The notes beneath the pieces were generated by a model. It made no database searches and was not told where the DNA came from. It saw only the letters and a list, made by a program, of their open reading frames with translations. DNA of 60,445 bases, the filler included, from Hausera hauseri (taxonomy: Eukaryota), in NCBI GenBank assembly GCA_046269625.1. It is 12 parts of 12 records of this genome, joined end to end, with 100 filler letters (N's around TTAATTAATTAA, not from the genome) between each part and the next. Parts side by side here need not be neighbours in the genome. Positions count along the whole stretch, not along the records: positions 48,918 to 56,071 come from JBJURY010034891.1; 11 more parts are not named here. The stretch is one strand, 5' to 3'. Both the position numbers and the translations under genes were made by a program. Of the stretch, positions 7,420-60,445 are shown in pieces (positions within the stretch are counted from its first letter, which is position 1; every line of letters begins with the position of its first letter).

Positions 7420-7773
7420 TATTTATACCCGACCACCAAAATTAAAACAAAATTTTTTGACACAAACCGACCAATCAGATTGCACCAAAATTAAGTGGGG
7501 GTGGGAATAGTGAAACCACGAACAGATCAGCTTTGTTCACAACCAAAATTTAAACAAAATTTTTGGCGCCAAATTCAAAATTTTACACGTACCTAAAAAC
7601 CATACAGTACGCTTAATTGTGTGTATCCACTTTGTGACTATGTGTCTCCTATCTCCGCCCTATTAACCGTGCATGTGTGTATCGTTTTTTCTACCCCATG
7701 ACTCATCCCAAAGCACATCAATTTTCCTTCCCTGGGGTGGGGGTCTGATCCAGTGCACTCCTCTCCTACTACT
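7420..7773 (+). mobile_element. Polinton terminal (TIR) region ending in ...CCTACTACT
   Basis: More GC-rich non-coding tract after pPolB, ending in the canonical Polinton 3' terminus ACTACT at 7768-7773, then an abrupt switch to an unrelated ORF. Confidence 0.75.
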
Positions 7774-9226
7774 TGCTAGAAGCCATGAATGATGAACGAT
7801 TTAAATTTCCTAAATTGATATCAGCAAGTCAACGAACGAGGCTTATAAAAGATACTTATGCCTCACTACGATGCGAACATGAGTGGAAGCCTAGGAACCC
7901 TACACAAAATGTGATGTCAGACAGCAATCCAAGAATTTTAATACAAAAATTCCGAACAGGATTTAGCGAATACCCAATATATAGACAAGTGGAGCCTCAA
8001 GGACACAACATATTTCAAGTGACCGTTCACAACAGCTCAGTTAGAACGGCCTGCAACCAACAAAACCCATCGACCAGCCAAGCTCGAAACGAAATGGAAA
8101 TAGTCCCCAAAAGAGCAACAGAAAGTCTGAAACCGAGTATCAGAGAAGTTCCAAGAGGACAAAAGACAAAAACTTCTTTTTTGGAGTACATTAGGAAGAA
8201 GAGAAGTAAAATCAGTAAGAACCTGAGCGAAGAAATGAAACCATCTTCTGGCCGTCTCACGCTCAACGAACAAGCAAACGGATGTAAGGAGGAACCCAAA
8301 AGGAAGGAAGCCGAAAATTACGACGAGATCCAGATGAGAACTGCCGATACAAAGCCCCGTAAGACAGAAGTAAACGTTCTTCGGAAGAATTGGGAAGAAG
8401 ATGAACCGATCATATTCACGGAATTTGGCCAAGTAAAGGAATATACCAGAATGCTCGTCATGGCCAAATATTACAGCAAAGGCAAGATCAAGGAAGCCAT
8501 ATTCTACGTATCCACTGTTCCTAGAAGAATCGTAAGTGTGAATGGATACGCTCGGGAGGACATAACCATTGGCAAATACTTAGCCCCAATATTACAGTCG
8601 AAAAACGGTACCAATAGATTAACCATTCCGGAAGATAACCAAGTCCGAATACAATTAAAAAGGTAATATAAGAAAACCGGAATACCACATTTAGACCAAC
8701 AAGATATCGTTGAATGGACGTTCGTCACCGTGTCAGATGACCCCAAGAAAAGCTCTATAGACCCAAAACAAAAACGACTACATGGATACTTATATCAAGA
8801 TAAAAAGGGACTAGTATTTGAACGAATAGAAGTCGACGAAAACCTCGTAGACATAGACGGAGGGGAGAAAGAAGAGTGCCCTGTTTGTGATGCCAATCTT
8901 TACCAAGGACTCGTGCTGTTGGATAATAAAGACTGTACCCACAAGTACTGCAGGTACTGTTTAGAAACATGGACCCTGAAAATGGGAAGACGACCTGCCC
9001 CGTATGTAGGACTGAGGCCACAAGACTGAGATACTACGCCAATGGGGAAAATAAAAAGATAGTGGAGATATTGTCCCAAAACCCACTACATCCTACCAAT
9101 TTGATCCGCAATCACCGCAAGAAGAATCGGATTCGGAAGCGGACCTACGTGGACGAATGAACCGGTTACGCGGCACCTCTTCTGACGCAATGGGCACATT
9201 CCAGAGTGCCGTTCAGGGAGGAGAAA
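7774..9226 (+). pseudogene. 3'-terminal ORF of an LTR retrotransposon ending in a C3HC4 RING finger (one in-frame stop at 8664-8666, frameshift near 8990)
   Basis: 7773..8666 and 8730..9029 are in frame; CPVC..CTHKYCRYC..W..TCPVCR; followed by PPT and LTR; homologous to 55785..56071. Confidence 0.75.
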
Positions 9227-9927
9227 TGTTATAGAGAGCTGAGAATCACAAATTGTATATATGTACAGTAAATTAAAAACGAAAGTGAAACTGAAAGCGA
9301 AAACCGAAAGAGAAACAATACATCATTGCAATTAAAATCAATTAATTTCTTGGATTATTCAGAGAAAAGACAGAAAATTTGCTAGAATTCCGCACACTAA
9401 ATGTCGAGAAAATAACTGCTACCTACGATTAATCAATATGAAATTGAGAAAAATTAGAAAGAATTAGAAATCTCTATTACCAATCCCGTATACAAATTAC
9501 TATATAAACGCAATGAAACAGTGTACAGTGTAGAACTGCATAGAATTCTAAACGTTTTATGAATCGATTGATACGGAAAAGGACTTGATTGTTATTTGAA
9601 TTTGCACCGTGAAAATTATTCGCTGTTCATTATCGGTATTGATTATTTATGTTATTAATAAAGTTTCTTTTTAAAGTTATTATAGTTTTTCGTCGCTCCT
9701 TACGAGGGACTTGTACTACACTAAAGATTAAAATCGTATTCAACTTTATAGTTAAGTCGAGAATTCCTAAATTACGCAAGGCACAGCACGCAGTATAAGC
9801 ATCATAAACTAGTGCAAATATTATAACGAGAACGGTAGGACTTATCTGCTTATAATTATTGTTCAAATTTAAGTTTCGATATTGTTATAGTTGGGTGTTG
9901 AATAGGGCCCACCTTCAACTACTAACA
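9227..9927 (+). mobile_element. 3' LTR (~700 bp) preceded by PPT (agggaggagaaa)
   Basis: TGTTA...TAACA termini; purine tract immediately 5'; end (gggcccacc...taaca) resembles the end of the LTR at 55125; no PBS follows. Confidence 0.75.
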
Positions 9928-9938
9928 TTTCGAATGAA

Positions 9939-13869: not shown

Positions 13870-14075
13870 TTTTTTTTGCATCCAAAACCATTTTTATCTC
13901 CTCCTCCATTCCAAATGCTCCGACTTTAATTAACGTTTCTTCTAGCTTTCGTAATTTGCTTGTTCATTCTTTGGGTAATTGACTTTTCCCATTATTGTGA
14001 TAGTAGATCCGGTATCTATCAGGGCCACTAATGGATATCCACCTACTTCGATATATATTTCTGGTCTTAGTGCAG
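13870..14075 (-). pseudogene. Retropepsin (aspartic protease) N-half
   Basis: Manual translation RPEIYIEVGGYPLVALIDTGSTITIMG (DTG at 14008-14016), then IKVGAFG flap-like segment; absent from the ORF track. Confidence 0.8.
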
Positions 14076-14229
14076 ACTTGAGTCCGTTTTTATTACTCAT
14101 TGAGAACGCATGCTCACGATTATATTGTGAAAAATTTTCTTCGTAATCCTTTTTAGGCGTAGTACTTAGTATGTGGGGTACATTCCTCCATGCTTCACAT
14201 AGTGAAGGGCTAATGGACTTATCAACATT

Positions 14230-16142
14230 TATTCGTTATATACTTGTCCGTTATATTCGTCTGTAGGATCTAACTGAGGTAAGTCAATAATTAGTTTTCG
14301 TTTATACTTCTGCCTTCGTGATTTTAACGAAAATCGTCTACGTTTTGTCAAATATCTACCACTTCTAAATTTGATATTCGAATCATTTTTATCATTGACA
14401 TTTTTGACGTTTAGGGTACTATATGGCAAATACTTTTCAATATGGTTATTTCTTTTTCTTGGTATTTGCCTTTTCCATCTTACGTCATGATTTGCTAAAC
14501 AACAACTGGCAACTGCCGGTATTACCTCTATAAGGATTTTCCATGAGCATCCTACTGCTGCATGTATTCCATAAGCCTTACCAAGTGCAGTGAATATCGT
14601 CCGTAGGGCACTGATGATGAAATATATTGCTAAAATGTCCTAAATCAGCCTGAACAAAATACAGGAATTTTCCACACATCCTTTCCATAACGTTTCTTGT
14701 GACTTTCTTCAAATAGTTTGTTCCCGTTAAATTTTCCCATTGTGGTGAACCTTCTCCGTCCCACATCACTATTTTTGTTAACTCCATTATTACTTGTTGT
14801 CTGTGCTGGGGAAACAATAACATTCGCCGATAGTCCTCTAAATTCTATTGTGTATAAATTCCGCCTTGTGATATGCCGGTAAGGGGTTCAAATTTCTGAT
14901 TTCTCTGCAAATTAATCAGACTTAACGCCTCTGGTTTCGTTACCGGTTTATTTTTTGGCATTCTAATCCATTTATTGTCCAGTTTAAACATTGGCGACAT
15001 ACTGAAAGTACAATTATCCAACTGAGTCGGTCTTGTATTAGCGTCTAGTAATATTCTTGTTACCGGCATTACGTATCAAGGTTCCATATTATAGATTACC
15101 GGTAGTTATGAAGTACATTCCTCCGTTGGCCTAATTGCTACTTCTACCTTTCTACACTCAATAGTTATTAGTAATTCGCCCATTACTCTTCCAATTACCC
15201 CATCGCCGAATGGCATCACCGGAGCTACCATTTCGGGATTAGTTATTATTAATGCCATCTTATTCCGTATTATTTCATAATTCAGTTTACATTCGTTTAG
15301 TATAATTTCCATATATAGACTTCCTATCTTTTTTCTGACGTAATTAATTAGAAAGTCAATTTTATTATCAAAGTTTTGCGTTAACTTTATATTCTTCTTG
15401 TCTATTTTTGTTTTAGCTTGGGCTGCTTCTTTAGACAAAAGGTATACACTTTTATAATTGGATTTGAACATTTCTTCGTTATTCTTATTAATCGTTTCGA
15501 TGATTTTAAATCGCATCATTTCTTCGGGATTTTCCGAGTATACCACATGGCTACTTACGTCATTTTTACCTCTCTAACTCCTTCATTGTATGTTGTTGAT
15601 ACTTTTTCGGCCACCTTTTCTATCTTCTTATTAAATTTTCCTTCCTTTAATAACGTAAGATGACACCGATTCGAGGATAATTCTCAGGTCATTTTAGATT
15701 CTCCAGTATTGCATTCCGCGTTGTCGTATTCACATTCACTCACAGTTGTCATAATTTTAGTTTGAGTCAAATAACCCTTCATATTCTTTCAATTGAACTT
15801 GATAATTTTCGATGACAACTGTGCTTGGTGCAATGGTGCATCCAACATCATAATCCACTCCTTTACGTGTACTTTCCATTGTTTTATCTATTTTTCCTGC
15901 TCTAAAAATTCGTGTGTAATTTATTTTATTTCATATTGCTGGTATTTGTGCGTTTTGTATTGTTATGACTACAATCTTAAATGCATCTTGGCATTCTGCC
16001 CGTGATATTATTATCGGTTCAAAGGTGTTGTTGGTTCGATAATAGAAGAATTTCCAGAATAATATGCGCAATTAAATAGGTAAAAGGATTTCTTTACGTA
16101 ACATTCTCGGACTTTAACTTTTATAAATTCTGATTCCTGGAA
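14230..16142 (-). pseudogene. env: Chuvirus-like (class III-type) envelope glycoprotein, degenerate
   Basis: EC..FNCA..SSIIEPTTP; KIDFL..LY..NECKL..NKMAL..NPE..GRVMGE..IECRKVEVAIRPTEEC; PVTRIL..C..PMFKL..W; GGIYT; AYGIHAAVGCSWKIL membrane-proximal segment. Confidence 0.82.
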
Positions 16143-16458
16143 AGTAGTATAAAAATGCGGGTTCTGGATCACCCCCTGCCCCCCATGCAGCCAATCCGAA
16201 GCGTGCTTGATGCGCACACCCATACGGATGGATAGATTCGGTGACGTTTGTTTTAAAAAACACACCGTGCACGATGCACCATGCACTCCGGAAGCAGGAG
16301 AGGTGCACGAAAAAATGCGGATGTAAGATGGAAGTGTTGCACGGCCATGTGTAGCACACAGAAATGATGGGGGGCGGAAGGCGCATCGAATGGTGAAGGA
16401 CCGAAGTCGATGGGGTGTCGGGGGAAAGAAAGGGGAAGGGGCAAAAAAGTGATCCAGA
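16143..16458 (+). mobile_element. Polinton-type terminus (AGTAGT...), possibly a miniature non-autonomous element, inserted in the glycoprotein gene
   Basis: AGTAGTA..CTGGATCA..CCCCC resembles the reverse complement of the 7773 terminus; GC jump; contig ends in GTGATCCAGA, the inverted copy of TCTGGATCAC near 16163. Confidence 0.6.
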
Positions 16459-41364: not shown

Positions 41365-42016
41365 TTAATGAATACTGAACTTTATCAATATTACTTTATT
41401 TACTCAGCGTATGTAAGTGCCATTACAGATAATCTGAGGTCGATTAAGTGACATCTGACATTTCAGAGTTATAGTAAATGCAAATATTTTATGTATAATG
41501 AGGGGGGGGGTTAAATGAATAAGTTAATTAAATGAAATTAAAATTTATTTACGGTTTTTTTGTTTCCGGCCATCTTCAATTTTTCCATAACGCACAGAAG
41601 AATTTTTGGATAAAACCAAATTCTCGCCCNNNNNNNNNNCGCCCATTTTCGACCAATAATATTTGAAATATTGTGTTCTCTTGATGCTCTATCCAATCAA
41701 AACGGTGTTCGTTAATGTGTGAAGCTACACAACTGATAATCAAAAGAGGGCGAGTAAAGAAGTGCGTAGTGACGTAACCTTTAAAAACACTGATTACACA
41801 ATATTAGTCCTACTTGCAAAAATCATTTACTATATTAAATTTTGTACCCCAGTTAGCAGTAATGTTACAAAGAGCTGAATTTTATTGTCTACTTGCACCA
41901 AGAACTTTTTCATGAGTCATTGATATAATACGTCATTTTGATTGGATAAAGGAATTTCTTGTGAATTAAAGAAAGAAAGTGTTAGGTTTAGTCTGTATTT
42001 CGAAAAATAAAAATCG

Positions 42017-43474
42017 TCAGAAAAATGTTTTGATGATCGTAGCAAGGCTGCTATACGTACCAAATGAAGCAGCGAAAATCCCCAATGAAAATATCCCTCC
42101 ATTAAGAACCAATTGAAATTTCCAAAATCGTCCAGATCTCGTCGAATATACAATGACCGAATGGCAAATCACTGGAAACAGAAACATCAAACTCATTTCG
42201 GCTACTGCTCCGAATAACGAAGCAAACAGATCCAACTGTGGCACAGCCACTGATAATACTGTTGTAATGACTACTATACCAATTCGAATACAGATATCCG
42301 AAATGAATTTTGCCCGGCCACTTTTAGCCTTTACCACAACTCGTTCCCAAATCATTTCAAACAACACAAACCCTTGTAAAGGGTAACTAATGAGAATGGA
42401 AATGATGAACAAAGGCTTGCACATGAAGTAATACCATGGGGTTACCGGTATCATCACCATAATGGAACTGCTTATTTCATCCCCAAATTTCCAGTAACTA
42501 GCGAATGAGATGAGCAAATAAAAACCGAGCACGATTGACGCACCAATATTGATAACACCACACGGTTTTAGTAAATTCTCCCGTTTCTTAATGTGACATT
42601 CAATTGGATTGATCAGTACAATGGACTGGAATGCAAACATTATGATACCGAATGATGCTGGAGTGGTAACTGTGAATTTGGCCAGCGGCAGTTTATTGAT
42701 CGGAATGGGATCATGAAAACAATAAACGAGTGCTATGGTAATACTGATCATCGTCAAGACATTTGCCCCCTCAGAAAAATACGCAATACAACGAAGAGTT
42801 CGGATGAACATCAGCGGCAAAAACAAGACAAACAAACCAAGCAAATACAGTCGAATTGATACCGAATTTTCCCCCATCGGAATGTAATAATCAACAATAG
42901 ATTTCGTATTTTCAGCTACGAAAATTTGATACGAAGATAACGTTCCTATCTGGGCCAAAAACAGACACAAATACAGTGCATGGTGCATCCAGCAAAATTT
43001 TCGAAATCGTTCGTCGGCAGTTTCGAAACATAACTTTACAGTCTTTTCGTAGTCTAAATTGTTGATATATGTTGGACAAACTGATCGTAAATGGATGACG
43101 ACTCGCAGAAGTAACCGAACACAATAAACAGAAATGGTCAAAATGAATACTATTAAGAAAATCCCCAGAACCAAACCGGAATATTTGAGAACCGAAGGCA
43201 AAGCTAAAATTCCCGTATCTGCACTGGCTTTGATCAGATTCATCAAAGCCTGGAAACTCGTTAGTTCTTTGACTTCGTACTGTTCATCCATAGCATCGAT
43301 GGATATGGACCTCCTTTCGTAAAATGCAAATTGTGTTGCGTAAGGCGAATAAGAAGAATAATCAAATCTTATAGTACTTTTGTACCTCCTTACCGGTCGC
43401 TCATTTTCTATTTGGTTTTGCAGTAGTGGCAGGATTTCTAAGCTGCGACATTTTCTGTGGTTTGAAAGATTCAT
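42017..43474 (-). CDS. Proton-coupled amino acid transporter (SLC36/PAT), tandem paralogue, intronless
   Basis: Intact ORF collinear with 39916..41364; first ATG (MNLSNH) at 43474. Confidence 0.93.
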   Translation of the reverse strand: MNLSNHRKCRSLEILPLLQNQIENERPVRRYKSTIRFDYSSYSPYATQFAFYERRSISIDAMDEQYEVKELTSFQALMNLIKASADTGILALPSVLKYSGLVLGIFLIVFILTISVYCVRLLLRVVIHLRSVCPTYINNLDYEKTVKLCFETADERFRKFCWMHHALYLCLFLAQIGTLSSYQIFVAENTKSIVDYYIPMGENSVSIRLYLLGLFVLFLPLMFIRTLRCIAYFSEGANVLTMISITIALVYCFHDPIPINKLPLAKFTVTTPASFGIIMFAFQSIVLINPIECHIKKRENLLKPCGVINIGASIVLGFYLLISFASYWKFGDEISSSIMVMIPVTPWYYFMCKPLFIISILISYPLQGFVLFEMIWERVVVKAKSGRAKFISDICIRIGIVVITTVLSVAVPQLDLFASLFGAVAEMSLMFLFPVICHSVIVYSTRSGRFWKFQLVLNGGIFSLGIFAASFGTYSSLATIIKTFF

Positions 43475-44899
43475 TAGACGACAGTTGAACTTTATCAGCA
43501 CACTTCATTAACGCAGTTTATGTAAATATGATTAATCCACTGTTCAATTATTACGCACGTGGCCTTCAATTTGATGACGATAAAATGTTTGTTAGATAAT
43601 AAAGTAGATTCACTGTTTGGTGTATAGTTGGGTAATTTGAGCATGAATTAAAAACGAAGGCAATGAACAAGCTTACTATTTTGATTCCATATTATAGATA
43701 TGAATTTTTCATTCGTTCATNNNNNNNNNNNNNNNNNNNNNNNNNNNNNNNNNNNNNNNNNNNNTTAATTAATTAANNNNNNNNNNNNNNNNNNNNNNNN
43801 NNNNNNNNNNNNNNNNNNNNAGGCTAGAGAAAGTGGAAAGCCCTTAATATTTCCTCAAGTACCATGTGACACTGATTCATCATTATATGTCCTTAAGTAC
43901 ACTGTCAAAACGGTCGATGTTCATAACATCTTGTGGTGTATCATAGTACAGCAAGTGCTCTACACTTACCTCGATCTGCAACCAGTCCTTGTATAGTGCC
44001 CCAGCTATGCTACATGTTAGTCATTTCTCACGGTTAGTCATGTCTCTCTTGAATGTTTCTGGGTCAGATAATAGACTTCTATTTACCCCAGAAGACTAGT
44101 TAGATGAGCTCTATCACTGCTAGGATAGTGTGTGCTTGCGACACTATACAATTACACTCAGAGATATGTAGATGAAACCCTTTTTTAATTGTCTCAATCA
44201 ATATTTATTAACTTATCCCACTGCATGCTGTTTAATGTTAACTTGTCTGACAGTTTCAATTATCACTTCCATCTACTGGACCGCTAGCTCTTTTGCCATC
44301 TGAGCAGTATGACTAGGATGGTCTTCATCAACAATTATTGAACACCTTTCAGGGAATTCTTGGGACAGCTGTCACTTCTTTACATGACAAAAAAAAACTT
44401 GTTAACAGAAACAAGAAGCATGCTCTTTTTCAGAAAATATCTCTGTGGACAGAAACCAGACAACAGAACACAGCTCTTCTAAACTCCGTGTGCATGGCAA
44501 CCATTTTAAGATGGAACATAATATCAAGTTGAATTGTAATGTCGGTTAATACTTAGAATCTTCTCGCTGATGTTTACAGGTATCCCACATCAGTATTTCG
44601 TCTAACCGCTGCCTTGCTTTCATGGTTTTTACAAGACTATAACGGCAAATAGATAAAAGATAACGGTCTGTGTACACTGAAATCTTGACAAATTCCTGGA
44701 CTTTCATTATCTGGTACACATTACTATCCTCTCTCCGTGGGAATGTAGCAACAGAACAGAAGAGCTGCATGTCCTTTTTCTTTCATTTTAATAATTTTTC
44801 GAGCTTCTTTTTTATCATAGGCCAGTCGATATGGTCTTTTCTTTATTGGTTTATCTTGACCCTCTTAATTTAATGGTCGCTTTATTACATTCATCATTC

Positions 44900-46967
44900 T
44901 TATATCATAGAGCATTATGATCCACGTCTTATCGTCAAATTTAAACATGGGTGCATTGTATCTGTTCCTGCTAATAATATTCGTCGTACTATTTCTTCGT
45001 TCCTATCTCTTATTTCGGATATCACTTATTCTTGTTCTTTTTGTCCTTCCTCTTCTGGCTTCTGTTTGAACCGTGACATCCTGAGTGTCACCTAATAGTT
45101 GCTCTTCTGCTTCCTGAGGTTCCAGTTCCCTCATTATATTGTCTATTGTTTCTTCAGCTCTCGCATCAGGATGTATCTCTATTATCGCGATTGGGTTATA
45201 GTTTGCCCTTCTACATCCGATCCTCAGTAAATTATCATACCTGTATATCGGTCCTCAGTAAAAACTCAACCCATATACTTTTTCTTTATAAAAAGGTTCT
45301 ATCTTTTCAACCTTCTCTTATAATATTAACATGTCGTCCGTTTCATTTATTCTGATGACTCTCATATACTGATTTCCTTCCTTTAGCGTTAGTCTTACTG
45401 TTTTGTTTCTTCCTCTTTCGTCTTCAGCTACTTTGGCTAGTATCGTACGTGCTATTTCTCTGACTGGACTAGTATCGTGAGCAAATAATAATAATTTAAA
45501 CAAAATTTCATTTATTTTAGCTGTTCATACCTTACTATTTATCATCTTTAATATTGTGGCTGTTGCAATATTTACATAAATTATATTTTCAGGATCTATA
45601 GCAGTTACTGCTTGAATTAGATCATCTTCAGCATATAGATCCACTTCAATATCGTGCATTACTTGCTCAATCACGGTTTCGTCGAATATTTTTGTAGGTT
45701 GGACTTTTCCCCCACTTTTCTCCGACGTTGACTCTCCAGGATTACATTTCTTTCGTCCTCTTTTCCTCTTTCTGTGTCACTTTTTTCTGTAGAGGTTTCT
45801 TTTGATTCAACATCGTCGACTATCTTTTATTACCTTTCTTTATTCCTTTTCGAGATTTTTTACCTTTTTGTTTTACTTCCACTACATAAGTACTATTTTC
45901 TTTTAATTTTTTCTGTTGGATCTCGTAGTCTTTTAGTTCCATGGCCAATTAGGTTTTCATACGTTGAAATATAGTGTCGTTAACATAATTTACACTTTCT
46001 TATTATCTTTATTTTTAGTTTCATGCTCGCTGTCTTCCGCCTCAAATTCCTTATCGGATGATTTATCCGAGGTGGCTGATGTATAGTCGTTTTTCTTTTG
46101 TTTATTATTATTATTAGACTTTGAGGGCTCTCTTTTACGTGACCTACATGATTTTGCTATGTGGCCATATTTATTATAGTTAAAACACTTTAATTGTCCT
46201 TCCGAATCTATATTGGTAATGTTCTTCCCTCCTTCATTGGATATTTTTTTTTATAATTTGACTTCTCCCATCATTCTTTAGTTTAAACCTTACTTTTCTA
46301 CGTCTAATTCAGCATATGTGACTGATATTTGTGAGGAGCTTTGGTTTCTCTCATAACATTGATACTTTTGCGTACTATTAGTCTTCCGTTTATCGTGATT
46401 ACCGTCATAACTTTTAGGCTTTTTCCACCTATATAGTTCCGTATCTCGTTCGGCTTTGCGTGCCTTCCTTATGGTTTCCTGAAACGTAGGTGGGTCAGCA
46501 TGCAGAATTAATGTTCTTAATTTTCCTTCCAGTCCGTATTGGAACTGAACGAACAATGCGTTACTTCTTATTGGTGCGTCACGGTATGCCCTTGCTGCAA
46601 ACTTTTTCGGTACACAGACAAAACTTTGGACCGTCTCATCCTTTAGTTGCTTTCTTCGTATAAATTCTTCTATTCTTCCCTTTCCAAAGGGATAAACTAG
46701 AAACTTTTGAGGTAACTTATTTTTGACGGTTTTCCAATCGTTTTCGTCATCTTCTGGCATCTGGAAGTAAATCGTTAAGGCTTTCCCTTTTAAGTGAAGA
46801 TGTAACCTATTCATCCTTTGGTCATTCCAACCAAAACTTTTTGAGTGTACTTCATACTCCGTGATAAAATCCGGTATGTCTTCCTTTCATGAAAACTTCT
46901 TCATGGGCAAAGTGATATCAGCCTTAGACCGTATCACCTGCTCTACGTTATGATCGCTTCGGGCCAT
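44900..46967 (-). pseudogene. gag: Ty3/gypsy-type gag (CCHC at 46146..46187) followed by charged tract, helical domain and ubiquitin-like domain; no protease or RT seen
   Basis: L.LHLKGKAL..W..K..RKQ..DETV..F..F.YGL; CFNYNKYGHIAKSC; VRLTLKEGNQYMRVIRINETD..EPFY..YGLSFY. Confidence 0.82.
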
Positions 46968-47120
46968 TCCGTTTTCTTCTTCCTCACTTATATTATTTAT
47001 AAATTCCAATCAGAGTGCTAAATTATCTTTTGGGTCTACTTAGTATGGTGTCCCCTTCCTAGTCGTAATTTTGATAACTTAGTTACTTCTTCTTATCTAA
47101 AGGTCTTCTAGGATGAGTTA

Positions 47121-47138
47121 TCTCGGGTCATGGCACCA
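47121..47138 (-). promoter_or_regulatory. PBS (tRNA-His-like) adjacent to LTR end (CA at 47140)
   Basis: TGGTGCCATGACCCGAGA about 150 nt upstream of the gag ATG. Confidence 0.7.
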
Positions 47139-48917
47139 GTGGTTCAAATACCGCTAATAATTGAGATAGAAGAGCAATAATATCTATTCCGTTAAATCAG
47201 TTACTGAAGATAACAATAACGTTATTAGAATATAAGGATTTTACCTAACTATCCCATAGGTTGTATATAAGAGTCCCCGTAAATAAATTAATTTACTTAC
47301 TTTGGTTTTACTTTAGGGTGTCGGACCGACCGTGTGTCGGGACCTGTGCCAAATTAATAAGAACAATTACTTAGATTACTTAGTTCTCTAGAGATAAAAT
47401 AAAAACGATATATACTCTGTAATGTAAAACCAACAATAAGATATAACTCATATGAAAAGTTTAACAACGATAAACAAGAATATCAATAAAAACTTACAGC
47501 TTTACATCTCGGATGAGTTTCAAAGTCTCGCAGTTTTTTCCAAAGTTCTAGTTTACATGCAATTCTATATATAGTACCTCGCTGGGTACTATAAAATAAA
47601 AGGAGCAAATAAAAATTAATCGGTATATAAATTAAAACACCAAAATACACATAATATGATCGTATGACCATAATTCAAACCATAGAATATCAACACAACA
47701 TATATTAATTATCAATAGTCAGTTCGATAGGAGAAATTAATACACATAATCACTTCGACGAAAGAATTTAATTCAACATCTATTTGTTGTCAGTAATCTA
47801 GTCAATTCGACAAAGGAAATTAATTTCATATATGTTCGCTGTCCATAATCAGTTCGACAAATTTAAAATATGAAAATCTTCTATGAATGAATTAAAATTT
47901 ATCTTAAAAACGTATTATTCTATACATAAAGCCTAAACTCTGAAATCAATTTGCAAACAGGTTTTTTAATGTTATCTTTCCCCAAAGAACAACAATACAT
48001 ACATTTGCAATACGACCATAAATTATACGCATACTGCTATGACGTGGTAAACGTTAACTCAACGTTCACCGATTTTATTTAACCACAATTTAAATTCTTG
48101 AAATGAATATTATATCGAGTGACGTTAAAAATGCATTTCATAAGCCGCTTCGTTTATGAATTGTTACAATCACTAATTAGACATTACAAACAGATATTAC
48201 CAGTTTTTTATTTGAATTCTCGTACTACTTTTTGTTGTTTTGTACGGTTTATTTGTTATTCTAATAGTACTCTGACACCTTTTTAACATTGTTTATGATT
48301 ACAAAAATAAATTTTATTGACACTTCCTTGTTATATTGCGAAAAATAAACATTCACAACTTCCCATAAGCTAAACGTAGATATCCGGCATAAATTTACCT
48401 CGCAGAATGAATATAATGTTTATACTTAGTTAATTTTAGTTTCATCTGAACATCATGATACGAAAATATCGATGAATAAAATTTAGAAGTCAAAACCAAA
48501 TAGGAATTTCCATGGTATTTTGTCCAGCATTTTGGCATTTATGATCATCTCTATGTAACATTATAGTTTTATGTAGTAAACATTTTTAACATCTAAACTG
48601 GAATTAGAATTTTGTATTTCAAGTTTTGTTTTCAAACTTGTATAATTCCATGGGAAAAACTCGAAATATGTTATAAATATTTTAAGACTATACGTTTCAT
48701 CATTTGATATATATCTTAGAATTCGGTTGGTGAAATAAAATCCAAAATTTATTTATTTTAAATTTTATACCAATTGTCTTTACGATTGTTTGTGTTCTGG
48801 AAAGGTTAGGTGAATAANNNNNNNNNNNNNNNNNNNNNNNNNNNNNNNNNNNNNNNNNNNNTTAATTAATTAANNNNNNNNNNNNNNNNNNNNNNNNNNN
48901 NNNNNNNNNNNNNNNNN

Positions 48918-49951
48918 TAGTTCTCCTGATTTCTGTATCCATTTTGCAGTTATTCATTATTATTTTATGATATAATTCCGTTATTCCGACTTGTTTTTTA
49001 TAGTAGAAGTAATCGTCTCTATTTTTCAGGTAGTCCTCAATCCGAACATCTTGCGTTTCCAATTTGTAGGTCCTCGCGTTTATCTCCGTTTCGGCTACAA
49101 AGAAGGCTTTATAGTTCGTGGCCAACATTACTACATCGCTGCGAGTTATCTCTTTTTTTATAAATTTTAATCCATGCGGATCTGAGATTAATATAGTCGG
49201 TGTAGGGTGTTCCGATACATCTTCGCTTGTTCTCTAATTAGTCTCCGATTTGTCTATATATCGTTTTCCGGTAGTTTCATTAAACTTTAACTCTTTAATT
49301 TTGATAAAGTTACGCTTCTTCCAGAGGGAGGTTCCCATATTATAACCGAACTTCTAAAAGCACAAGTTCCGTCTTGTAAATGGCATTTCTGATTCACAGT
49401 GTATAACTTAGTGACACTATGGAACATTACCTTTTGTGACCGCATTTTCGATTCGTAGAAATCCACAACTACCACGTTTGGTTCTAATCCTTTTCCAGTA
49501 TCGTATTCTGCTCCACTACAATGTCCGCTATGCATATCCAGCCTTCAAGCTACTACTTTGTATGCTATGATGATCTTTCCTGGTTGCATTTCTAGTTGCA
49601 TACTGTCCCATTTTCTTTAGCTTGTTTGCAATATTGGCGTTCTGAATTCATTGGAATTAGCGGAGTAGTTGGCTTAATTAGGGAGGAATGTCCGTGTATT
49701 AGGCCACAGTGGAAGATACTACGGGATCGTCTCAACATGCACTCCATTCCGTCTAACGATATCAATTCTTGTTGTTGATACAGGAAATAACTTTTCTCTC
49801 TCGTTTCCAATTTGTGCGGTCTGGCGTCCTCGCATACTTCCAGGTCCATTAAGGAATATCTCTGTCCTAGTTTAAACTTATCGCAATCATAGACGGTTGC
49901 CGCACTTATATGCTTTATTAGCATCATTAAGGTAAGTAAGCTAATTAGCCA
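48918..49951 (-). pseudogene. env: Chuvirus-like envelope glycoprotein N-half with internal signal peptide (cut by spacer)
   Basis: WLISLLTLMMLIKHISA|ATVYDC..YSLMDLEVC..YQQ..EC..FHCG..HSSLIKPTTP; GHCSG..Y; CHLQDGTC..IIW; LYHKIIMNNCK. Confidence 0.85.
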
Positions 49952-52900
49952 ATTTGATTCATTTTTCCGACCTCCAACGTCTAACGTCGTCAAGCTACGT
50001 AACATATAGTCGAGTTTATTGTTGTTTCGTTTGTCTTCTTCCTTGTCAAATAGTCTCGCCCAATTTACTTTGCAAGGCATTCTTCTTGCTGCTCTCCGTG
50101 CTAAGCTTATAGCCCGATTGATTTCATTCTCTCGATTAGGATTTATTTTGATGACTAAGTATAGCAATACTTTTCTCAATTCTTCATTCGTGTTTTCTAC
50201 CATGGTTTTTCGATTACCGATTCATCAGTTAAATTACTTTTCGATAGTTTTAAACGCGAACTTCGCATCATTTTGGCTGCATCGAAAATTATCTTTTCTT
50301 TATCATCTAACACATCCCCTTGAAAACTAGAATAATTCACAATTCATATTAAGTTTTTTATTAACTCGCCTAATTCCTCGTTATCTGGGCTAAGAGTCGG
50401 AATCGACATTTGTCTCAATTCTCTAATTAATTCTCCGTTATAATCCACTTCACCTCCCACTTTTCTAAGTCTGCCTACTGGGCGTTTCGGTCTTGGACCT
50501 TTAGTGGTTGTTTCACTCAGTGGTACTAAATTTATGTCGTATTGTTCTTTATCTTCGTCCGTTTGCAAACACTCAAAATATAGTGCAGCATCTCGAACTC
50601 CCATAATTTGTCCTACTCATTGTTCTGTTTTGGCTTTACGTGTAGCTTCTTCTTTTGACTGTTCGTTAGTTATTACTACTACTATCCGATTTATTTCGTC
50701 GGGAATAATCCCGACATCTATTAGTTGTTTTAAGTCATCGAGTATTCTACCTCTAAAATAAAATCTGTAGTTTAACTCGTTCATTTCACCATTGTTTATT
50801 AGCCATTCTCTTATATCCTTTACGTAGGAATGTGTAGTCAGCTCGCATTCTTTTTCGTTCATCCATTTGGATGACAACATCACTTTCATCGCTATCTCAG
50901 GTTTATTCCTTAAAATTTTAGCATACTTCCTTATCGAAAGCTTCGGCACCGTGCTATAAATCGTGTTTTCACTGGACAATTTAGTTAAAGTTGGAATAAG
51001 TTGTCTTAATTCGTTTTCAGTAATATTTACATCAATTAATTCAATCAAATCCCTTTCAGTTAGCCCTGAATCTAATAGTATTTCCACATTGAATCTACTG
51101 GTTTTTGGACATGTTTCTATTTCGCTTAGCTGTACTGGAGTCATAAGCTTTCCAGCAAGTATTTCGTCAAAGTATGCATCCCATTCTGGCTCGTTACTGA
51201 CCTCGGGAAGTCCAGTGTCTATTTCACTTGTTTTTCTCTTTGTACAATTTCTCTAATTTCTTTCAATCTTCGTGGTATTTCCTTCATCTGCGTAGTCTGA
51301 AAACCTACTCCATTTCCACAGGCATACTGAATCATTTTCAGTAATTTGCCCAATTTGTTCGGGCCAACCAGCCCTTTGTGATGATAATCTGTCAATTCAA
51401 GAATTACATCTTTTTGCCATCTTTGAACAAATTCTCGTTTATTCTTAATCTCTGATTCGGTGAAAGCATATTTGTTTCTATAGACTTCAAGCTCTTTTTT
51501 TATTTCATCTAACCTTGTCGCTCTTCGTTTCGTTTTGATACATGTTTCTTCTACTTTCTGTATCTTGGGCATCAGTTGCTTCATTTGCTCATTACTGATT
51601 TCTGCCATTTCCACTAATAAATAGCTCATTTATAACCTTTGAATCAGGGTCTATCGCATCGGACAATTTCTTTATAAACTTGTGTTCCTGAAAGCTAAAA
51701 TGTGCGTCATTTCCGATTTTTATCAACTTGGTATGGAAATTCTGGTCTGATCCGGCCATCCATTCTTGAGATTTGTGTATAAACCTTATTGCATTTGTTA
51801 ACGTATCCCAATATTCTGGACAAATATCCAAGATTCCAATATCTGGTACAGAAATTTTGTCGATTGGTTTCCCGGTTAAATATTGAATCCCTTCTAGTCG
51901 GACATTCCTTAACTTGTAATTTACATCGTAAATCACATTTTCATTCTCCGTAAAATTTGTCTCTTCGATCAATTTGTAGATTTCCTCCATCATCGACGCT
52001 TCTTCTTCCTTTTTTAAAAATTTTAGTCGTCGTAGCGCTTCAAATTGAGTACGGGTGTCTATGTCTATCCGTAACGTGGCTAAATTGTGTGCACTTTCCT
52101 CTAGTTGCTTCTTCACCGTTGGCTCGCTTTGCGGAAATTTTGTTTTACGATCTTCTACCAATTTGGTTAGTTGCGTTACTAATTCGGACCACTCGGACAG
52201 TTAATTTGCGATTACAGGTTTCGCCATTATGGCTTTATCTAGCATCTTACAGGCTTCTTCTAACTCATCGTCTGGTCCTTTTAGGAAATTCATAACTCGA
52301 CCGACATAACTAAACTCGTCCTTGTACTCGTCCAATTCTACGATACAAGTCTTTACTGTATATTGAGTATCCTCGTTGTTTTGGAACATAATTCTATTCA
52401 TCAAATTATAAATCTGTGCTCGTATTTTATTTTCTATTTTTACACGATCCTCTAAATTCGTATACCGTCTAGGTACAGCGAACGTGAGTTTAATCATCTC
52501 CATTAAGGGAGAAATATCTACTATGTATATACCCAATATTTCTAAGTCGATATTACTTCGATTACTGACCGGTTTTTCTCTCAGCCGGTAAGTCATTACA
52601 AGGCGAATTTTACCCATCATACGTTCTAAATTGCGAGCTGCTCGTTTTAATTTTGGGTTTACTTCTAAGGTGGACAGTAATGTCTGAGCTTTAGTGACTT
52701 TTATGTCGACTATATCTTTGTTTTTATTTCATCCTTCTGAAATTTCTACTCCGCTTTTAATCCATGATTCTAATTCCCGCTTCCATTTTAACAACATTTC
52801 GGTTGATACCTCTTCGGGTTGTTCCAAGTCAATTGCTTCTGCGAACTTTCCTTCGCTATTCAGTTTTAAATTTTTATATAACTTCTCAGCGAATTGTTGT

Positions 52901-53680
52901 TCTTTTCCATATATGTCTACTTGTTCGCTAATTTGTTTAAGCCTTTCTAGGTCAGATTGTAGTATTCCTGACTCATAACGTTTGTTTTTCAATTTTCTTA
53001 ATTCATTGGCGTTTTTCCATGAATGCCGGACTTTCCACTTCTTGGAATCGAAATCATCCGTATTCGTTGTTTCTTCCTCACTAATAGGAAGTGGGCAGAT
53101 CACGTTAATTTCTTTAGTTGACTCTACAGACTCTGCTACTCCGACAGGTGTGTGTAAACCAATTTCTGGTGTATCCAAACTATGTTCCGTGTTGCCTCCT
53201 ACAACGGCGTTCGGGTTTTCCGTTTCTTCAGTTTTCTCTCTGGTTATTTTAGAGCGTGAAAGGCTTTTACGTTTTGTTTTTAATGAAAAACTAAGGCCTC
53301 TATTTTTTTTCCTTTTCAATNNNNNNNNNNAAGTTAACTGCCGTCGATGTGCCTGGTTTAGCAGATGGCTTATTGCTTGTCGTAACACTCTTCTTCCGTG
53401 TTATATCAATTCGTTTTGGTGCTATCGTGTGTTCGTATTCAGTTTCCAGTTCTGTTAAGCCATTGTATACTTCTAATAATCTCAATTTATCTCCGTATTC
53501 TCTTCTAGACATTAGAATTTGTAAGTTAGTAGTGTCCGGCTAAGCGCCTAAGAATTTTCTCAAATCCTGTATATCGATGACAGTGCCTGTATCCCCAAGA
53601 ACGCCATACTTTGCTTCTAGCTTCTCATTGATTCTAATCATACTAGTCATATTTGACTCAGTAAATAAGACGCTACGTGG
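49952..53680 (-). pseudogene. ~3.7 kb interrupted coding tract between gag and env: unknown charged/helical domains plus a ubiquitin-like domain (~50670..50895)
   Basis: Chain of same-strand ORFs (219, 139, 189, 136, 175, 86 aa); IAMKVML..YVKDIREWL..YRFYFRGRILDDLKQLIDVGI..IVVVI fits a beta-grasp pattern; no RT, RNase H or integrase motifs. Confidence 0.7.
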
Positions 53681-54727
53681 GTTTGGACATGACCTTGAAA
53701 TATGTCCTTCTTTGCCACAAGTAAAACAAACTATATTTCCATTTCTGCCGACTCTCTATCGACCGTCTTTGTTTACTGGTGACTTAGATCTATTTATACT
53801 CTTACTATACTGATTTGGCAAACTTTGCACATTGTCGGAATTTTGTCTATTATAGTTATTTTGGTTATCACCGTTTTGGTTTGCGTAGTTTGAGCCTTTA
53901 AAATTTCCTCTATTTCTATCCCAGTTAGAGTCTGATCTGTTCGTATTTGTATAATTCCTACCTCTTCCATTTCTGGAACCGCCATTATTATTTCTATTCC
54001 TATCATTTCTGTTACCTGTAAATCGTCTGTCGTCTCTTCCACTATTATCATTGCGATTTCTATCGTTCCGGTCATTTCGATCATTATTCTTGTTATTTCT
54101 CTCGTTATGTCTAGCGTATCTATCTAGCGTCATTTCTAAGTCTTGAGCTAATCGCAACGTTCCTTCAAAAATCTCAGGTCTAGCTAAAATCAATTGTTTA
54201 ACTAAGTCTCGCGACCAAATACCATTTATTAGTTGCGTCGTTATTATAACATCTAAATCTGGTGGTGAGGCCTTCTCTGCGGCGTCACGTTCCGCGTCTG
54301 TCTTAGCTTTAGCTACGTTGGCTATCCTTAATGTGCTAATATAACTATTAGCAAGCTTCTTCAGCGCAAATGCGAACTGAGTTACTGATTCACCCTTTTG
54401 CTGTACTCTGTTCTGAAATGCCATAAGCTTTTGATGCGGCGTTACTGTCGACAACAGTTTGCGACTTAATGCTCCTACTAGGGAGGATTAAGATTTCTTC
54501 TCTCCGTTAGTGAGTTCACTATAGGCATCAGCGGCTAGATTTTTCAGATACAACGACAATCGCTTAATCATCACTTCAGGAGTCAGACTAGCACCTTCTG
54601 CGTGCAATTTATAAGTTCTAAAAAATTCGTTAAGCCCGTCCGGGTCTCCGTCATATGCCGGCATGTTTAGGGAATAGAACGTTAAGATGTCCAGCTTCTG
54701 CGCTACTGGTGAATTATCTGCTGCCAT
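53680..54727 (-). pseudogene. gag: Ty3/gypsy-type gag with Asn/Arg-rich tract and CCHC knuckle (53687..53728)
   Basis: MPAYDGDP..FF..Y..LYLKNLAADAY; RVQQKGESVTQFA..L..L; QLINGI; CFTCGKEGHISRSC. Confidence 0.9.
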
Positions 54728-55104
54728 ATTATTTACGTTATTTAACTCTAAATTTGCTTTATTTACTTTAGGTTTCTCGAGTTGAATTTTAAACTGTTTA
54801 TTTTGTGCAACGACGTCTAGTTTAATTCTATTTCCGGAATTTGAACGTTTATCTACTTTTTCTGTTTCTCTATATATGTTTCGACGTGTCTCACGTATAG
54901 GTAAATTAATTTTTAATATACAATTTACTTTCAACTTATCAATGTTTGTTCTCAAACGGTTTTTAAGTTATTTATCCACGTCAATAACCTTATATCCCAA
55001 ATCGATTTTAGTTTCCAAATATCCGATTAATTGATGTGAATGGCGCTGTTTGCCGATATGTAATTAATTAACTCTGAGAAAGTAAGGCTAGCAAGGTACA
55101 TACT

Positions 55105-55122
55105 GTCCTGCTTGGGTCGCCA
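55105..55122 (-). promoter_or_regulatory. PBS (tRNA-Arg-like)
   Basis: TGGCGACCCAAGCAGGAC two nt after the LTR end TAACA. Confidence 0.8.
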
Positions 55123-55124
55123 AA

Positions 55125-55784
55125 TGTTATATATTGGGGTGGCCCTTAAGTTTTACTTGAAATTTATTTGCTATGCAATTCGATCTACCGTTATCGCTTA
55201 GATAGAATGTACCTTAACGATTTTAAAATCAATGTGCGGTTATATGCGTGCGGTCCTGTGCCAACGGTTTTAAAATCTCTCTTTTAACTATATAATTTAA
55301 ATAGAACGTTAACCTTATTGTTGTCTAATCAACCTTAAGGGGCGATGGAAATTATCAGGAGATTTTAGAAAATAAAATCACGAAATACCTTTAATTCTTA
55401 CTATACGACACAGAAATCGATATCAGTTCAGAAAGTATGATCAACGATTAGTCAATAGTCAATTCAATTTGATCAGTGATCTTGCTGCTTCTCCAACAAA
55501 ATTTCTCATTTCTCACTTTCTTGCTTTACTTTATATAGCTTACGTCCCATAATTTATTTATTTCACAATTGATTTATATTCAATTCTTCCAGAATACTTT
55601 TCTAATAAAACTCAATTCTACGCATTAATAATTAAATTTTTTACTACTACTACATTGTGGCTTCCTTCCGATTTCAATAGACGGTATAAATAATAAATGA
55701 TAATACTAATTAAATATTTACATATGCACATCTAGTGTTGTCTCCGTTATGTCATTTTTTATATTATTGCCTCTGTTTGCAACA
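55125..55784 (-). mobile_element. LTR (660 bp) flanked by a PPT on one side and a PBS on the other
   Basis: TGTTG...TAACA on the minus strand; PPT agggaggaaaaa at 55785-55796. Confidence 0.85.
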
Positions 55785-56071
55785 TTTTTCCTCCCTGAGC
55801 GGCATCCTCGGATGTGCCCATTGCGTCAGGAGAGGTGCCGTGAGAACAAGGAGAACGCAAAATTTTTATGCGTCTTCTCAGACTGAGTCCATAACTGGCA
55901 CTAGGTTGGCTTTCTCTGGGATTCGTGTCCAATTCATAACTGTGGTAGGGTTTAATTCTAACTATTCTGGTATAGCTACCGTTTGAGTAGTACTTTAGGT
56001 CGGCAGCTTTAGCTCGGCACACTGGACATGTGGTCTTTGCACTATCCAACGTCCATTTCTCTAGGCAGTCT
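55759..56071 (-). CDS. C-terminal half of a RING finger ORF running through the PPT into the LTR
   Basis: DCLEKWTLDSAKTTCPVCRAKAADLKYYSNG matches CLETWT..GKTTCPVCRTEATRLRYYANG near 8960..9050. Confidence 0.8.
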
Positions 56072-56690: not shown

Positions 56691-59600
56691 TTATTTCAGC
56701 CGCCAGTGTCCATACGCCCAACTCTTATTTCGCCCCACCCAATTTGGTTTATCATCGTTACATGAAAAAGCGACTTTCGCATTAGTTATTGTGTACAGCT
56801 AGTGCTCAATTGATCGGATGATCGTTTGAGACACCTCAGCCGCTGATTGTCCTCCTTCTTCTGCTACTGCTTCTTCATGTATGTAGCGATAATCACCGTG
56901 GTCAATTTCCGGATGTTTCATCTGGATTCCTTTTTCCCGAATTTTCGGTCCACAGTCCGTCAGAATAATGTAGCACTTTAAGCGTAGGAATATCCATTCC
57001 CGATAATAAACCCTGCCTTCACTTTCATCCTTGAAGCAGCCGATTTCGTTGGTGATCGCACTGCTGTAAAACGGATGATCCGGTGGATAGTTGGACGTGT
57101 CCAGTAATCCGTCTGACTGCATTTTCTGCAGTAGCTTTTCGCGAATGATTTTTCCAGCCGTAGAAAAAAACGATCTGTATCACCAGCAATTATACTAATG
57201 TCACAGCCGTCAAACATTTTCCGGTAACGCGCCAAATCGCGATACTGTAGCTCATACATCCTCAACTTGCTCAGGTCAAATACCACTTCTCTGATATAAC
57301 TTGGCCGGTCCAAAACGATGTCTTCTCTGTTTAGCAACATCGCAGTCAATCCACCAACAATATGCATTGACCGCCGAAACTGTACCTTGCTCGTGTATGT
57401 AACCAACCGCTTTTTGCTATTGCATAGGCGTACATTGGGCCACTTTTCAGATTTTTCACTGTTTTTCCGTACTGGGAATTGCTTTTCAGCTTGAAGTAGT
57501 CCTTTTCGAACTTCGTACAAGCTGCGGCTCGTTTCTCCGAATTTCCATCTATGTACGCCTTGAATATAAGCGTCTGAGCAAATCGGATTGCACGATGCAG
57601 CTGTGTGATGCGTACACCGAGCTGCATGTAGAACTGTAGCAGATGCCAGTGGACCACATAATTCAGCTTCGGTTCATGCGTCATGAGCAGTTTCTTCGCT
57701 TTGAGCCTGGCGGATATTGGTTAAATGGTACGATTAGTAAATCGTCCAAAACGTCATGCAACTTATCTGATACTACGAAACCGACCTCCATCTGATATTC
57801 GAATGAGCCTGCCATGTCTGCTCGTTATAGGTTGACCACTAATTCGTCCAAATCTTGTCTGTCGACTACCCATTCGAATGAACCGTAAGGCAAGGGTTGT
57901 GGAAGCGCCCAGTGGTACAGGTTATTAATATCAATATACAACAGTGATGTGGTATCGGTAGCACTGATCTGATGCTTGTTGACAAATGTCATGCCACCGC
58001 TAATACCAACATCAAACAGCCGGTATATATTTGGGTCTTGCAGCAGCTCAATGTTCGATCCAGTGACACTAGAGCTGATGCCCAACTCACTCCCGGTATG
58101 GAATAAAAGTGGAGTGGTTCCAGCCTACCTTCAGACAATGCTTTCCCTCGAAACGCTTGGAACACATCAGCTAATAAGTACATGTCCAGTTTAAGATACT
58201 AAAGCATGTAATCCAACATTTTTCTACAGCCTAGTTCTGTGCAACACCACTGTGCTTTCCGGTATTCATCCTCTGCGATACTTATTCATCGTGGCGGTAA
58301 TTCCTCTGCTATCCGGAGATGCTCATACGATGTTGCAAAGTCATATGTGAATATGCCTCTGCTGTGTGCAATATGTGCGGGTAATTGCTTCAGTGCTATC
58401 GGCACATTTTTCAAGGCCAATGTGCCAATGATTCATTGAGAAATTGTAATGAATCGAGGAAGTGCACCTGGAACTGGTTTACACGAGCAGACAGTGACAG
58501 ATATTTCGCCATTGTAGCCTGAATTATAGATAGTTCCCAGTGCGGAAATTCATCTATTGCCCATTTCAAAATATGGTCACAATCATGACCCCTGAAGTTA
58601 TGAAATACCACCGGTAAAAATGGCCGCACACGCCTTGCCAAATTGCATGAATTACATGCTGCTCCGAGATATCGACCAGTAAAATGATCGTGATCCGGTA
58701 CCAGCCGTTTCAGTGCGTCAAACGGTAATATTTTGTGGCACAAGTAACATTCACCTGTGACTGCAAACGTCAGGCATTCATCTTCATCTGTCCACATCAT
58801 GGATTTATTAAAATTTTTACTGTACCAGGGTGCAATTTCAGTTTCCACTATTGTTTGCAACTGCTGCAAGAAATCGCGTATACAATTCCATCCGTGGAAA
58901 ACAATATGGAAGTTGACCTGCGGCTTTTATTGGGACAACCAACATACCGACGGCGATTGGAACATGTTTTTTGTAATATGTATGTTGTGCCGCGGTAATA
59001 TAGCTTCGATATCGGCATGTACGGAATGTCTATTTCTGACCAATCAGTGAACCTCAGTTCCTGTTTGACGGGCATGACATACATTGTGGTTCATGAAGAA
59101 TTTCGTCTGCACAGAGTCACATGTTTCTTCCATGTTGTTTTCGACCTGAATCCATGAAGACACACAGGACACCATTTACACTGTATCCGTTTTTGGAGGA
59201 AATAGTTCAGTAATCTGTCCAGATTTGTAATTGCAAAGTAATGGTACTTTTCTTTTTGTTCCAGTAGCAACAAATTTATTGAGTGGCCATTTTTGTTCCG
59301 AGTACGAAAGATTATATGCATATGAGGATTTTTGTAAATTTTTTCATCCGCTGGTATTTCTACGAATGTGTTGTACCGGAAAACGTTGATTGCCAGTGTC
59401 GGCTTATGCCGTTCAAAAGCAGGAATGGATTTCAGTTTCAGCGGCATCAAACTTTCATCGAAATCCAATTCGGAAAAATATTTCTGATACTGTTTTGGAC
59501 GACATGCACTATGTCTGCAAAATTTGTCATATTTCAATACCGTCAGAATACTGTAAAGGAAACAGTATTCATCGTTAGTATTTTTTACATTCACTACCAC

Positions 59601-60445
59601 CAGAGACTGCTTCAGAGCTGCGGGTGTCGGTATGAATGATCGGCCAAACAAATATATTGTCACTCGACTTTGTTATGATAAAGCCGAGGGTGACAATTCG
59701 TATAATGCGCCATCCACTACCCTTTTCCGTGTAGTTGGCGATTTTCTCCTCGAGATTTTCGCCTACGTCGGCAATAAAAACATTGGTATATGGTACAGCT
59801 CAATGTGATAGGTACCATTGTTTCCTGTCACCTTAAAAGTTTTCGAATTCTGCAAGTGCATGATATTGCACTTTGCAGTGTTGGTGTTAGAATTTCTCCA
59901 CTTCTGATTCCAACCGGTTGCGCATATTTTGAGGTACATGTGTCACTTGCGTTGTTGTTTTCGCCGATATATTCGCTTTTATATCCACGTACGATCTGCT
60001 CAGATTGTACTTGACATTAATGTCGAGTTCCTGTTGTATCTGTTCCTCTTACTGTTGAAGCTCCTGCTCATCCTCCTGTTGCTCTTCTTCTTGCAGCTCG
60101 GTACTGGTTCTGATGTATTTGTCCAGACCTGTTCATGCCTTACGTTTCCGACTGGTTTTTCGACCACCGCTGAAACTGGTTTAAGTGGTCCTGGTGCTCA
60201 CTGTAAAATTGTTCATAGTTGATTTCATCAACTATTGAACAACCAGGACAAATATAGGCCCGTTTACCGTGCACCCTTGTAGCGCCATAGTATTGCTCCA
60301 TGGCACTATGGCAACCATCAACGTCGTGCACTGTACTTGTACAGTACTGTGGACACATGGGGTAATGCATTAGCATCATCTTTGACCGTGTAAACGGTCC
60401 GAGATGATGCTTGTGCATCTCATAAAAATCTGGGTACTACATTGG
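56691..60445 (-). pseudogene. Polinton pPolB, degenerate, nearly full length
   Basis: VVNVKN..CFLYSIL, LAINVF, CYLC..DHDHFTGRYLGAACNSCNL, FHNFRGHD, YIDINNLY, GDTDR, FKDES, DDK..AYGHW. Confidence 0.94.

Follow-up and report, generated by a model that had tools for sequence, protein, structure and literature searches.

We report that the eleventh of the 12 contigs making up a 60,445-nucleotide window of the Hausera hauseri assembly GCA_046269625.1 (Eukaryota; contigs of 4-7 kb each, with N spacers between them) is a decayed, dead copy of a large, high-copy family of long terminal repeat (LTR) retroelements. The element under study is this entire contig (JBJURY010034891.1, positions 48918-56071 of the window, 7154 bases or 7.15 kb, minus strand). 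Read along the minus strand, it displays the tail of a RING finger, a polypurine tract (PPT), an LTR, a primer-binding site (PBS), gag, a decayed insert with a ubiquitin-like (Ubl) domain, a signal peptide and a Monjiviricetes-type glycoprotein (env). The LTR, PBS and PPT, the order gag-X-Ubl-signal-env (X being the bulk of the insert), the decay and the copy number were observed directly. We estimate at roughly three in four the probability that this dead copy belongs to a compact, Burro-like errantivirus with GAG-ENV-POL order from a free-living flatworm. A first-pass annotation of the same DNA had described an enveloped LTR element of gypsy type carrying a Ubl, a 3' RING and an env placed ahead of pol; we judge this description right, with the env-pol order as probable. 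It had also proposed a new lineage with an unreported gene order, and both proposals are superseded by the literature: the same gag-Ubl/SUMO-env-pol design has been published for Burro (Arkhipova and Yushenova, PMC6431247), and GAG-ENV-POL errantiviruses with a gB-type env have been catalogued in flatworms (Chary and Hayashi, PMC13524379).

The hallmarks of an LTR retroelement, namely an LTR bounded by TG...CA, a tRNA PBS and a PPT, were all present on the minus strand. The LTR (55125..55784, 660 bp) occurs as a single copy on the contig, with the PPT before it and the PBS after it. The PPT (55785..55797) was recognised by its sequence, and the same tract followed by TG was found on contig 2 at 9214. 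The PBS (55111..55122) lies two bases past the LTR end and is of the tRNA-Arg type, 11 of its 12 letters being identical to the 3' end of the Arg-CCG primer tabulated in supplementary file 1 of PMC13524379. Ahead of the PPT, the contig end cuts into an accessory open reading frame (ORF) whose 3' end encodes the C-terminal half of a RING finger (55759..56070, minus strand); this frame passes through the PPT and stops 25 bases into the LTR. The RING tail matched Pfam zf-RING_2 below cut-off (E 0.0072) and shows homology, at blastp E 7e-6, to the end of a RING ORF on contig 2. That related 3' end (7749..9230, plus strand) consists of a free-standing ORF ending in a RING (Pfam E 3.5e-5), followed by PPT and TG; it is preceded by non-coding DNA, with no integrase ahead. 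Contigs 2 and 11 are 88% identical over 60 bp surrounding the PPT (9171-9230 and 55781-55840), with flanks that do not align at this level. The same 60 bp encode the tail of the RING ORF and may serve a double role. The RING of the focal contig lies outside the gag-env frame and is assigned to the 3' end of the copy before it. The arrangement RING-PPT-LTR-PBS(Arg-like)-gag(CCHC) on a single contig, as first annotated, was borne out by sequence, Pfam and the PBS match.

Behind the PBS, gag (53333..54727, minus strand) comprises a capsid-like part, an Asn/Arg-rich linker and one CCHC knuckle; it contains 3 stops and runs on into the insert. The knuckle (53731-53681, zf-CCHC E 1.3e-7) was the only one found. 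The first 200 residues of gag align with a retrotrans_gag-like ORF of contig 10 (blastp E 1e-5), which is itself a sub-threshold PF03732 match; the Pfam scan gave no direct PF03732 match for the focal gag. The coding path from gag to the first env stop, picked by eye and with stops at frame junctions left out of the stop counts, holds 7 stops in 1704 codons, versus 367 in 3403 for the other two frames. Frame changes were located near 51600, 51255, 50215, 49550 and 49315. The path spans about 1590 codons plus a gap from the gag start to the env signal, including 3.7 kb of coding sequence between the CCHC knuckle and the signal peptide.

Insert X (50893..53319, minus strand) amounts to about 800 charged codons with no known domain, and carries the frame changes near 51600 and 51255. 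The scaffold gap at 53321..53330, nominally 10 N, lies within a Lys/Ser/Thr/Glu-rich linker. Translated in a single frame, which put about 115 of its 1031 residues out of frame, X gave 0 matches at E<=0.001 against 1.84 billion representatives; this null result counts only weakly, as planarian repeat proteins may be scarce in the library. At cut-off, X matched no Pfam or NCBIfam family. Protease-like D-S/T-G strings in X (51222 and 51075) were rejected, Pfam support being lacking. Across the interval from gag to env, Pfam scans of the coding path detected neither a protease nor a reverse transcriptase (RT), RNase H or integrase, and all minus frames were free of YxDD and HHCC motifs.

Downstream of X, a Ubl/SUMO-like domain was placed at 50670..50892 (minus strand). 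Its best named match in the ESM Atlas was PF11976/PF00240 (score 0.92, 175/256 features), in a cluster that is 98% PF11976. All ten of the best named Atlas matches fell in one clan, a result that a third of shuffled proteins also reach. Sequence searches of the element's parts against the PDB returned nothing significant, the Ubl matching UBL4A at E 0.76. No di-glycine follows the last Ubl strand, and conjugation is therefore unlikely in the focal copy. Among longer proteins of up to 2000 residues, matches were found for 0 of 1392 candidates with the Ubl-bearing ORF and for 0 of 910 with the env ORF; since the homolog searches were limited to this length, a polyprotein of Burro size could not appear. 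The linker between Ubl and env (49952..50669, minus strand) includes a frame change near 50210-50220 and showed no Pfam or PDB match. A stretch near 50480 fitting a pattern that we take to be BH3-like was rejected as a chance-level match, equalled in 204 of 1000 shuffles for X and in 37 of 1000 for the Ubl-env linker.

A hydrophobic stretch resembling an internal signal peptide (49901..49951, minus strand) precedes the glycoprotein and is the top hydropathy window (1.79) of the coding path scanned; the PF24664 match starts here. The first-pass annotation had called this signal in frame. The hydrophobic signal is indeed present, but in the focal copy it is out of the Ubl frame, owing to the frame change near 50210-50220. 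We infer continuity from Ubl to env because sister contigs differ from the focal copy by an indel at this place. The glycoprotein (48918..49900, minus strand) corresponds to the N-terminal half of a gB/chuvirus-like ectodomain of class III type. It matched PF24664 (Monjiviricetes fusion proteins) with 36.1 bits versus a cut-off of 27, at E 2.5e-9 and E 0.009. Stops and frame changes occur near 49550 and 49315, and the contig end cuts the match at about model position 341 of 653. The proposed chuvirus-like identity stood above the Pfam cut-off over the N-terminal half, and the class III fold is putative. The focal env is 26% identical to an env on contig 3. By eye, both share with the Smed_errantivirus_1-6 sequences of PMC13524379 the motifs Y-x-x-Q-E, E-C, C-G...H-S-S, M/L-R/K-F-I/L-K and A-T-N-Y.

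The copy number of the family was assessed in two public runs that hold the element, X1 and X2; X1 may be the source organism, hence it does not count as independent support. Contigs falling on the element numbered 17803 in X1 and 1136 in X2, with 30 of 30 bins occupied in each run, and 14058 of the 17803 sister contigs in X1 were less than 95% alike. The sisters depart from the focal copy at three of its stops (54490, 53758 and 52731) and carry indels where its frame changes near 50210 and 49315, so that one long frame in active members may fairly be supposed. Near the gap, 19 of 39 variable sites fell at third codon positions (p 0.03). Across the whole element the best-supported variable sites did so in 5 of 34 cases, these being mostly private changes of the focal copy; the codon-position count excludes six listed sites that fall in the LTR, the RING part or the non-coding leader. 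The middle of the LTR (55371-55609) was rare among the X1 sisters, with a depth of 16 where the bins on either side had 2373 and 18077; 70 sister contigs diverged just upstream of 55837. The family appears to retain the PPT/LTR head and the tail, with a variable LTR middle and 3' ORF. No RNA run was among the listed holders of the element, which is uninformative on expression. Loci related to the element were found neither in the viral contigs nor in the metagenome contigs searched, and scans for tRNA genes and Rfam families found none.

Evidence on the position of env came from a related family on contig 3, where a separate copy (13945..16160, minus strand) reads env (PF24664, E 7e-18) then an aspartic protease (RVP, E 2e-4, above cut-off) before being cut off by another element. 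This arrangement supports a placement of env before pol, as judged from sequence and in a different family. An RT end, RNase H and integrase also lie on contig 3, on the strand opposite to env-protease, and belong to another element. The full layout pieced together in the first-pass annotation accordingly found no support in the window beyond env-protease. The stretch 11056-16458 is a three-part mosaic consisting of the RT end/RNase H/integrase (plus strand), a piece of the contig-10 family (plus strand, 74% DNA identity over 693 bp) and env-protease (minus strand), cut at about 13870.

The identity of the host was approached through contig 9, where two intact, intron-less SLC36 amino-acid transporter genes lie in tandem (39919-43504, minus strand) and are 70% alike in DNA. 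One of them gave 2 matches at E<=1e-40 among 7998 candidates, the best being Schmidtea mediterranea slc36a-1 (49%, E 6e-134) and the next an Anopheles (mosquito) protein (29%, E 2.5e-49). Its neighbour was 43% identical to the same Schmidtea protein. If all contigs come from one animal, these genes point to a triclad or a near relative as the probable host.

Taking contig 3 and the Burro literature together, we hypothesize that active members would encode one polyprotein, gag-X-Ubl-signal-env-transmembrane segment (TM)-protease-RT-RNase H-integrase. Env would enter the endoplasmic reticulum through the internal signal while Gag, X and Ubl remain cytosolic, the env anchor would bring Pol back to the cytosol, and the protease would separate the parts of the polyprotein. 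A tRNA-Arg would prime minus-strand synthesis and the PPT plus-strand synthesis, and env, as a putative class III fusogen, could enable cell-to-cell spread. A Ubl without di-glycine would most likely act as a built-in binding or decoy domain rather than as a conjugated tag, and the 3' RING would probably be a separately made E3 ligase, comparable to the BIR-RING protein of Burro1. The suggestion that the element carries its own ubiquitin-system modules was overstated, because the Ubl lacks the di-glycine here and the RING comes from the 3' end of the preceding copy. The contig order RING-PPT-LTR-PBS-gag itself probably reflects two head-to-tail copies sharing an LTR, or an assembler that merged both LTRs.

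Several observations weigh against a Burro-like flatworm errantivirus. Nowhere in the window is pol linked to the focal family, and the common origin of contig 9 and the element in one organism is an assumption. The focal gag has one knuckle versus two or three in Burro. Pfam and NCBIfam scans of the focal contig, a decayed sequence, detected no MATH, BCL2, BIR or ankyrin domain; a BIR would lie off the contig. The Ubl fell below the Pfam cut-offs (ubiquitin E 0.015, Rad60-SLD_2 E 0.07), and a single-sequence model of Ubl plus linker reached a confidence (pLDDT) of 39.9, leaving the fold unconfirmed. Foldseek found no match to this model at E<=0.001, and the best VIA-align hit was a designed protein (Z 5.4), both results being uninformative at that pLDDT. 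The strand-strand-helix-strand pattern of the model is compatible with a Ubl, the model being too poor to test the fold. Of the beta-grasp domain first annotated at 50670..50895, the PF11976 match in the Atlas thus stood, but structure modelling and Foldseek added nothing to it. The gap at 53321 was bridged by no listed X1 or X2 contig, and no joint was listed. With this unbridged gap excepted, as it was in the first-pass annotation, Pfam and motifs upheld the absence of RT, RNase H and integrase from the gag-env interval. Finally, the suggested kinship to Burro rests on layout, Pfam family and motifs matched by eye.

The absence of a pol link could mean that the family is a non-autonomous derivative made of gag-X-Ubl-env and the RING ORF only, borrowing RT and integrase from a helper. 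We consider this unlikely. The contig ends inside env, and what precedes the RING ORF of contig 2 is non-coding DNA, not integrase, as such a derivative would have it. However, a contig that stops in mid-env does not allow the absence of pol to be judged, the related env of contig 3 has a protease behind it, and the flatworm elements of this env class described in PMC13524379 carry pol. Likewise improbable is the broader proposal of a compact enveloped lineage apart from Burro, with a novel insert of about 1100 codons, a Ubl and RING that would act on host ubiquitin, and a pol-less, helper-dependent particle.

Convergence offers a second alternative, in which an independent lineage, either another flatworm GAG-ENV-POL clade or a BEL/Pao element bearing a chuvirus-like glycoprotein, would have arrived at a Burro-like layout with its own captures of Ubl and RING. 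X is without detectable relatives, the additional Burro domains were not detected, and Ubl recurs in retroelements, as on contig 7 (Pfam ubiquitin E 0.005), all of which this alternative would accommodate. BEL/Pao gag proteins carry three zinc knuckles, unlike the focal gag with its one CCHC. GAG-ENV-POL elements are reported to be non-monophyletic (PMC13524379), which also favours independent origins, but the Ubl family and its slot, the env class of the Schmidtea C1a group, the 3' RING and a triclad-like host all coincide, and we regard convergence as quite unlikely.

Very unlikely, in our view, is a mosaic in which gag and X-Ubl-env derive from different elements joined at the N gap by nesting or mis-scaffolding, or in which pol lies within the gap: the unbridged gap shows a read depth of 0 at 53315-53329, loose ends point into it from either side and contig 3 shows nesting to be common in this genome, but the sequence on either side is open, keeps to one strand and is alike in low-complexity make-up, and the same two runs cover both sides at depths of the same order. 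Gaps of 10 N in short-read scaffolds are usually shorter than the insert of a read pair. The joined order is, moreover, the published order of Burro (PMC6431247). We therefore retain the Burro-like GAG-ENV-POL errantivirus as the best explanation.

The remainder of the window contained pPolB-like pieces, gag and pol pieces of LTR elements and the SLC36 gene pair, most contigs being decayed mobile elements. Past the PPT and TG of contig 2, two open frames (9906-10955, plus strand), one ending in a TM-like segment, matched no Pfam or NCBIfam family at cut-off and are possibly pieces of host genes in or beside the LTR. Contig 7 holds the second Ubl-bearing retroelement of the window (30879-33214, minus strand), with the Ubl ahead of gag and two CCCH fingers before a protease-like stretch; we presume from its appearance that it is a BEL/Pao element. 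At 43821-47400 (minus strand), a gag with CCHC precedes an extra, unassigned domain and, behind that, a decayed RT-like start, and a piece of the same family occurs in contig 3. An AT-rich contig carries a full RING ORF (26189-27203, minus strand, Pfam E 5e-10) and Cys-rich RING-like frames near 26640 and 26240; comparison of this ORF with the focal RING gave nothing at E<=0.001. Decayed DNA polymerase B-like stretches, which we take to be of Polinton/adintovirus type, were found at 1-4888, 4989-6840, 22832-26087 and 57205-60437 (Pfam DNA_pol_B E 0.004 for one of them). Over 3.3 kb, contig 5 shares 77% identity with contig 12.

Compared with known systems, the most distant likeness is to the mosquito BEL/Pao elements with a chuvirus-like glycoprotein (Dezordi et al. 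2020, as cited in PMC13524379). These share the same broad glycoprotein class but differ in superfamily and host, the focal gag having a single CCHC and a retrotrans_gag-like capsid. Closer are the flatworm errantiviruses. According to Chary and Hayashi (PMC13524379), flatworms, bryozoans and nematodes have only gB-type env in the GAG-ENV-POL order, Schmidtea contributes 253 ENV-POL env ORFs, and the Platyhelminthes C1a group with an HSV/gB-type env includes six Schmidtea elements, Smed_errantivirus_1-6. The focal element resembles these six in its gag-env order (with pol presumed to follow), env class and, by eye, short env motifs, and their listed regions of 14.5-18 kb leave room for an insert the size of X. 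It differs in having a RING tail and a Ubl, RING and ubiquitin domains being unmentioned in the main text of that paper, and in its Arg-type PBS, none being listed there for the six Schmidtea elements. A literature search for a gypsy LTR retrotransposon with a RING finger and a ubiquitin-like domain found no such paper by title or start of abstract.

The closest parallel is Burro. The set described in PMC6431247 (2019) comprises Burro1/GYPSM1 and Burro-2 to -4 of Schmidtea mediterranea and a Burro-like element of Dugesia (Girardia) tigrina; in their polyproteins an Ubi2/SUMO-like PF11976 domain and a mononegavirus-like env stand in frame, after gag and before pol. BURRO1 is reported to be expressed under PIWI control (PMC8532177), and Burro1 to encode a BIR and RING protein that protects stem cells and to occur in land and freshwater planarians (Lee et al. 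2026, via PMC13465017). The focal family shares with Burro the gag CCHC, a long insert, a PF11976-type domain, a mononegavirus-like env (ahead of protease, judging by the related family on contig 3), an accessory protein with a RING (for Burro1, as given by the citing paper), a very high copy number and, probably, a flatworm host. Its Ubl, matched by the Atlas and weakly by Pfam, occupies the slot of PF11976 between gag and env, and its Ubl-env linker the place where Burro has a BCL2-like motif. Burro elements are giants, with an internal region of up to 25 kb and an ORF1 near 4900 residues (PMC6431247); the focal copy, on a contig of 7154 bases that no longer record covers, shows only about 1590 codons plus the gap from the gag start to the env signal, has a short LTR (660 bp) and is decayed.

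The novelty is modest and lies in a compact variant with an insert lacking detectable relatives, which adds one family to a published class. It bears in a small way on which parts of the Burro cargo are fixed (Ubl before env, 3' RING) and which can be dispensed with (MATH, BCL2, BIR, ankyrin, extra knuckles). Since the BIR-RING protein of Burro1 is reported to protect planarian stem cells, a compact relative with a different insert could help to reveal which modules are needed. The family would matter more if it were pol-less, or if its host lay outside the planarian families reported for Burro1. Collectively, the comparison places it as Burro-like within the flatworm GAG-ENV-POL class with gB-type env, and not as Burro in the strict sense.

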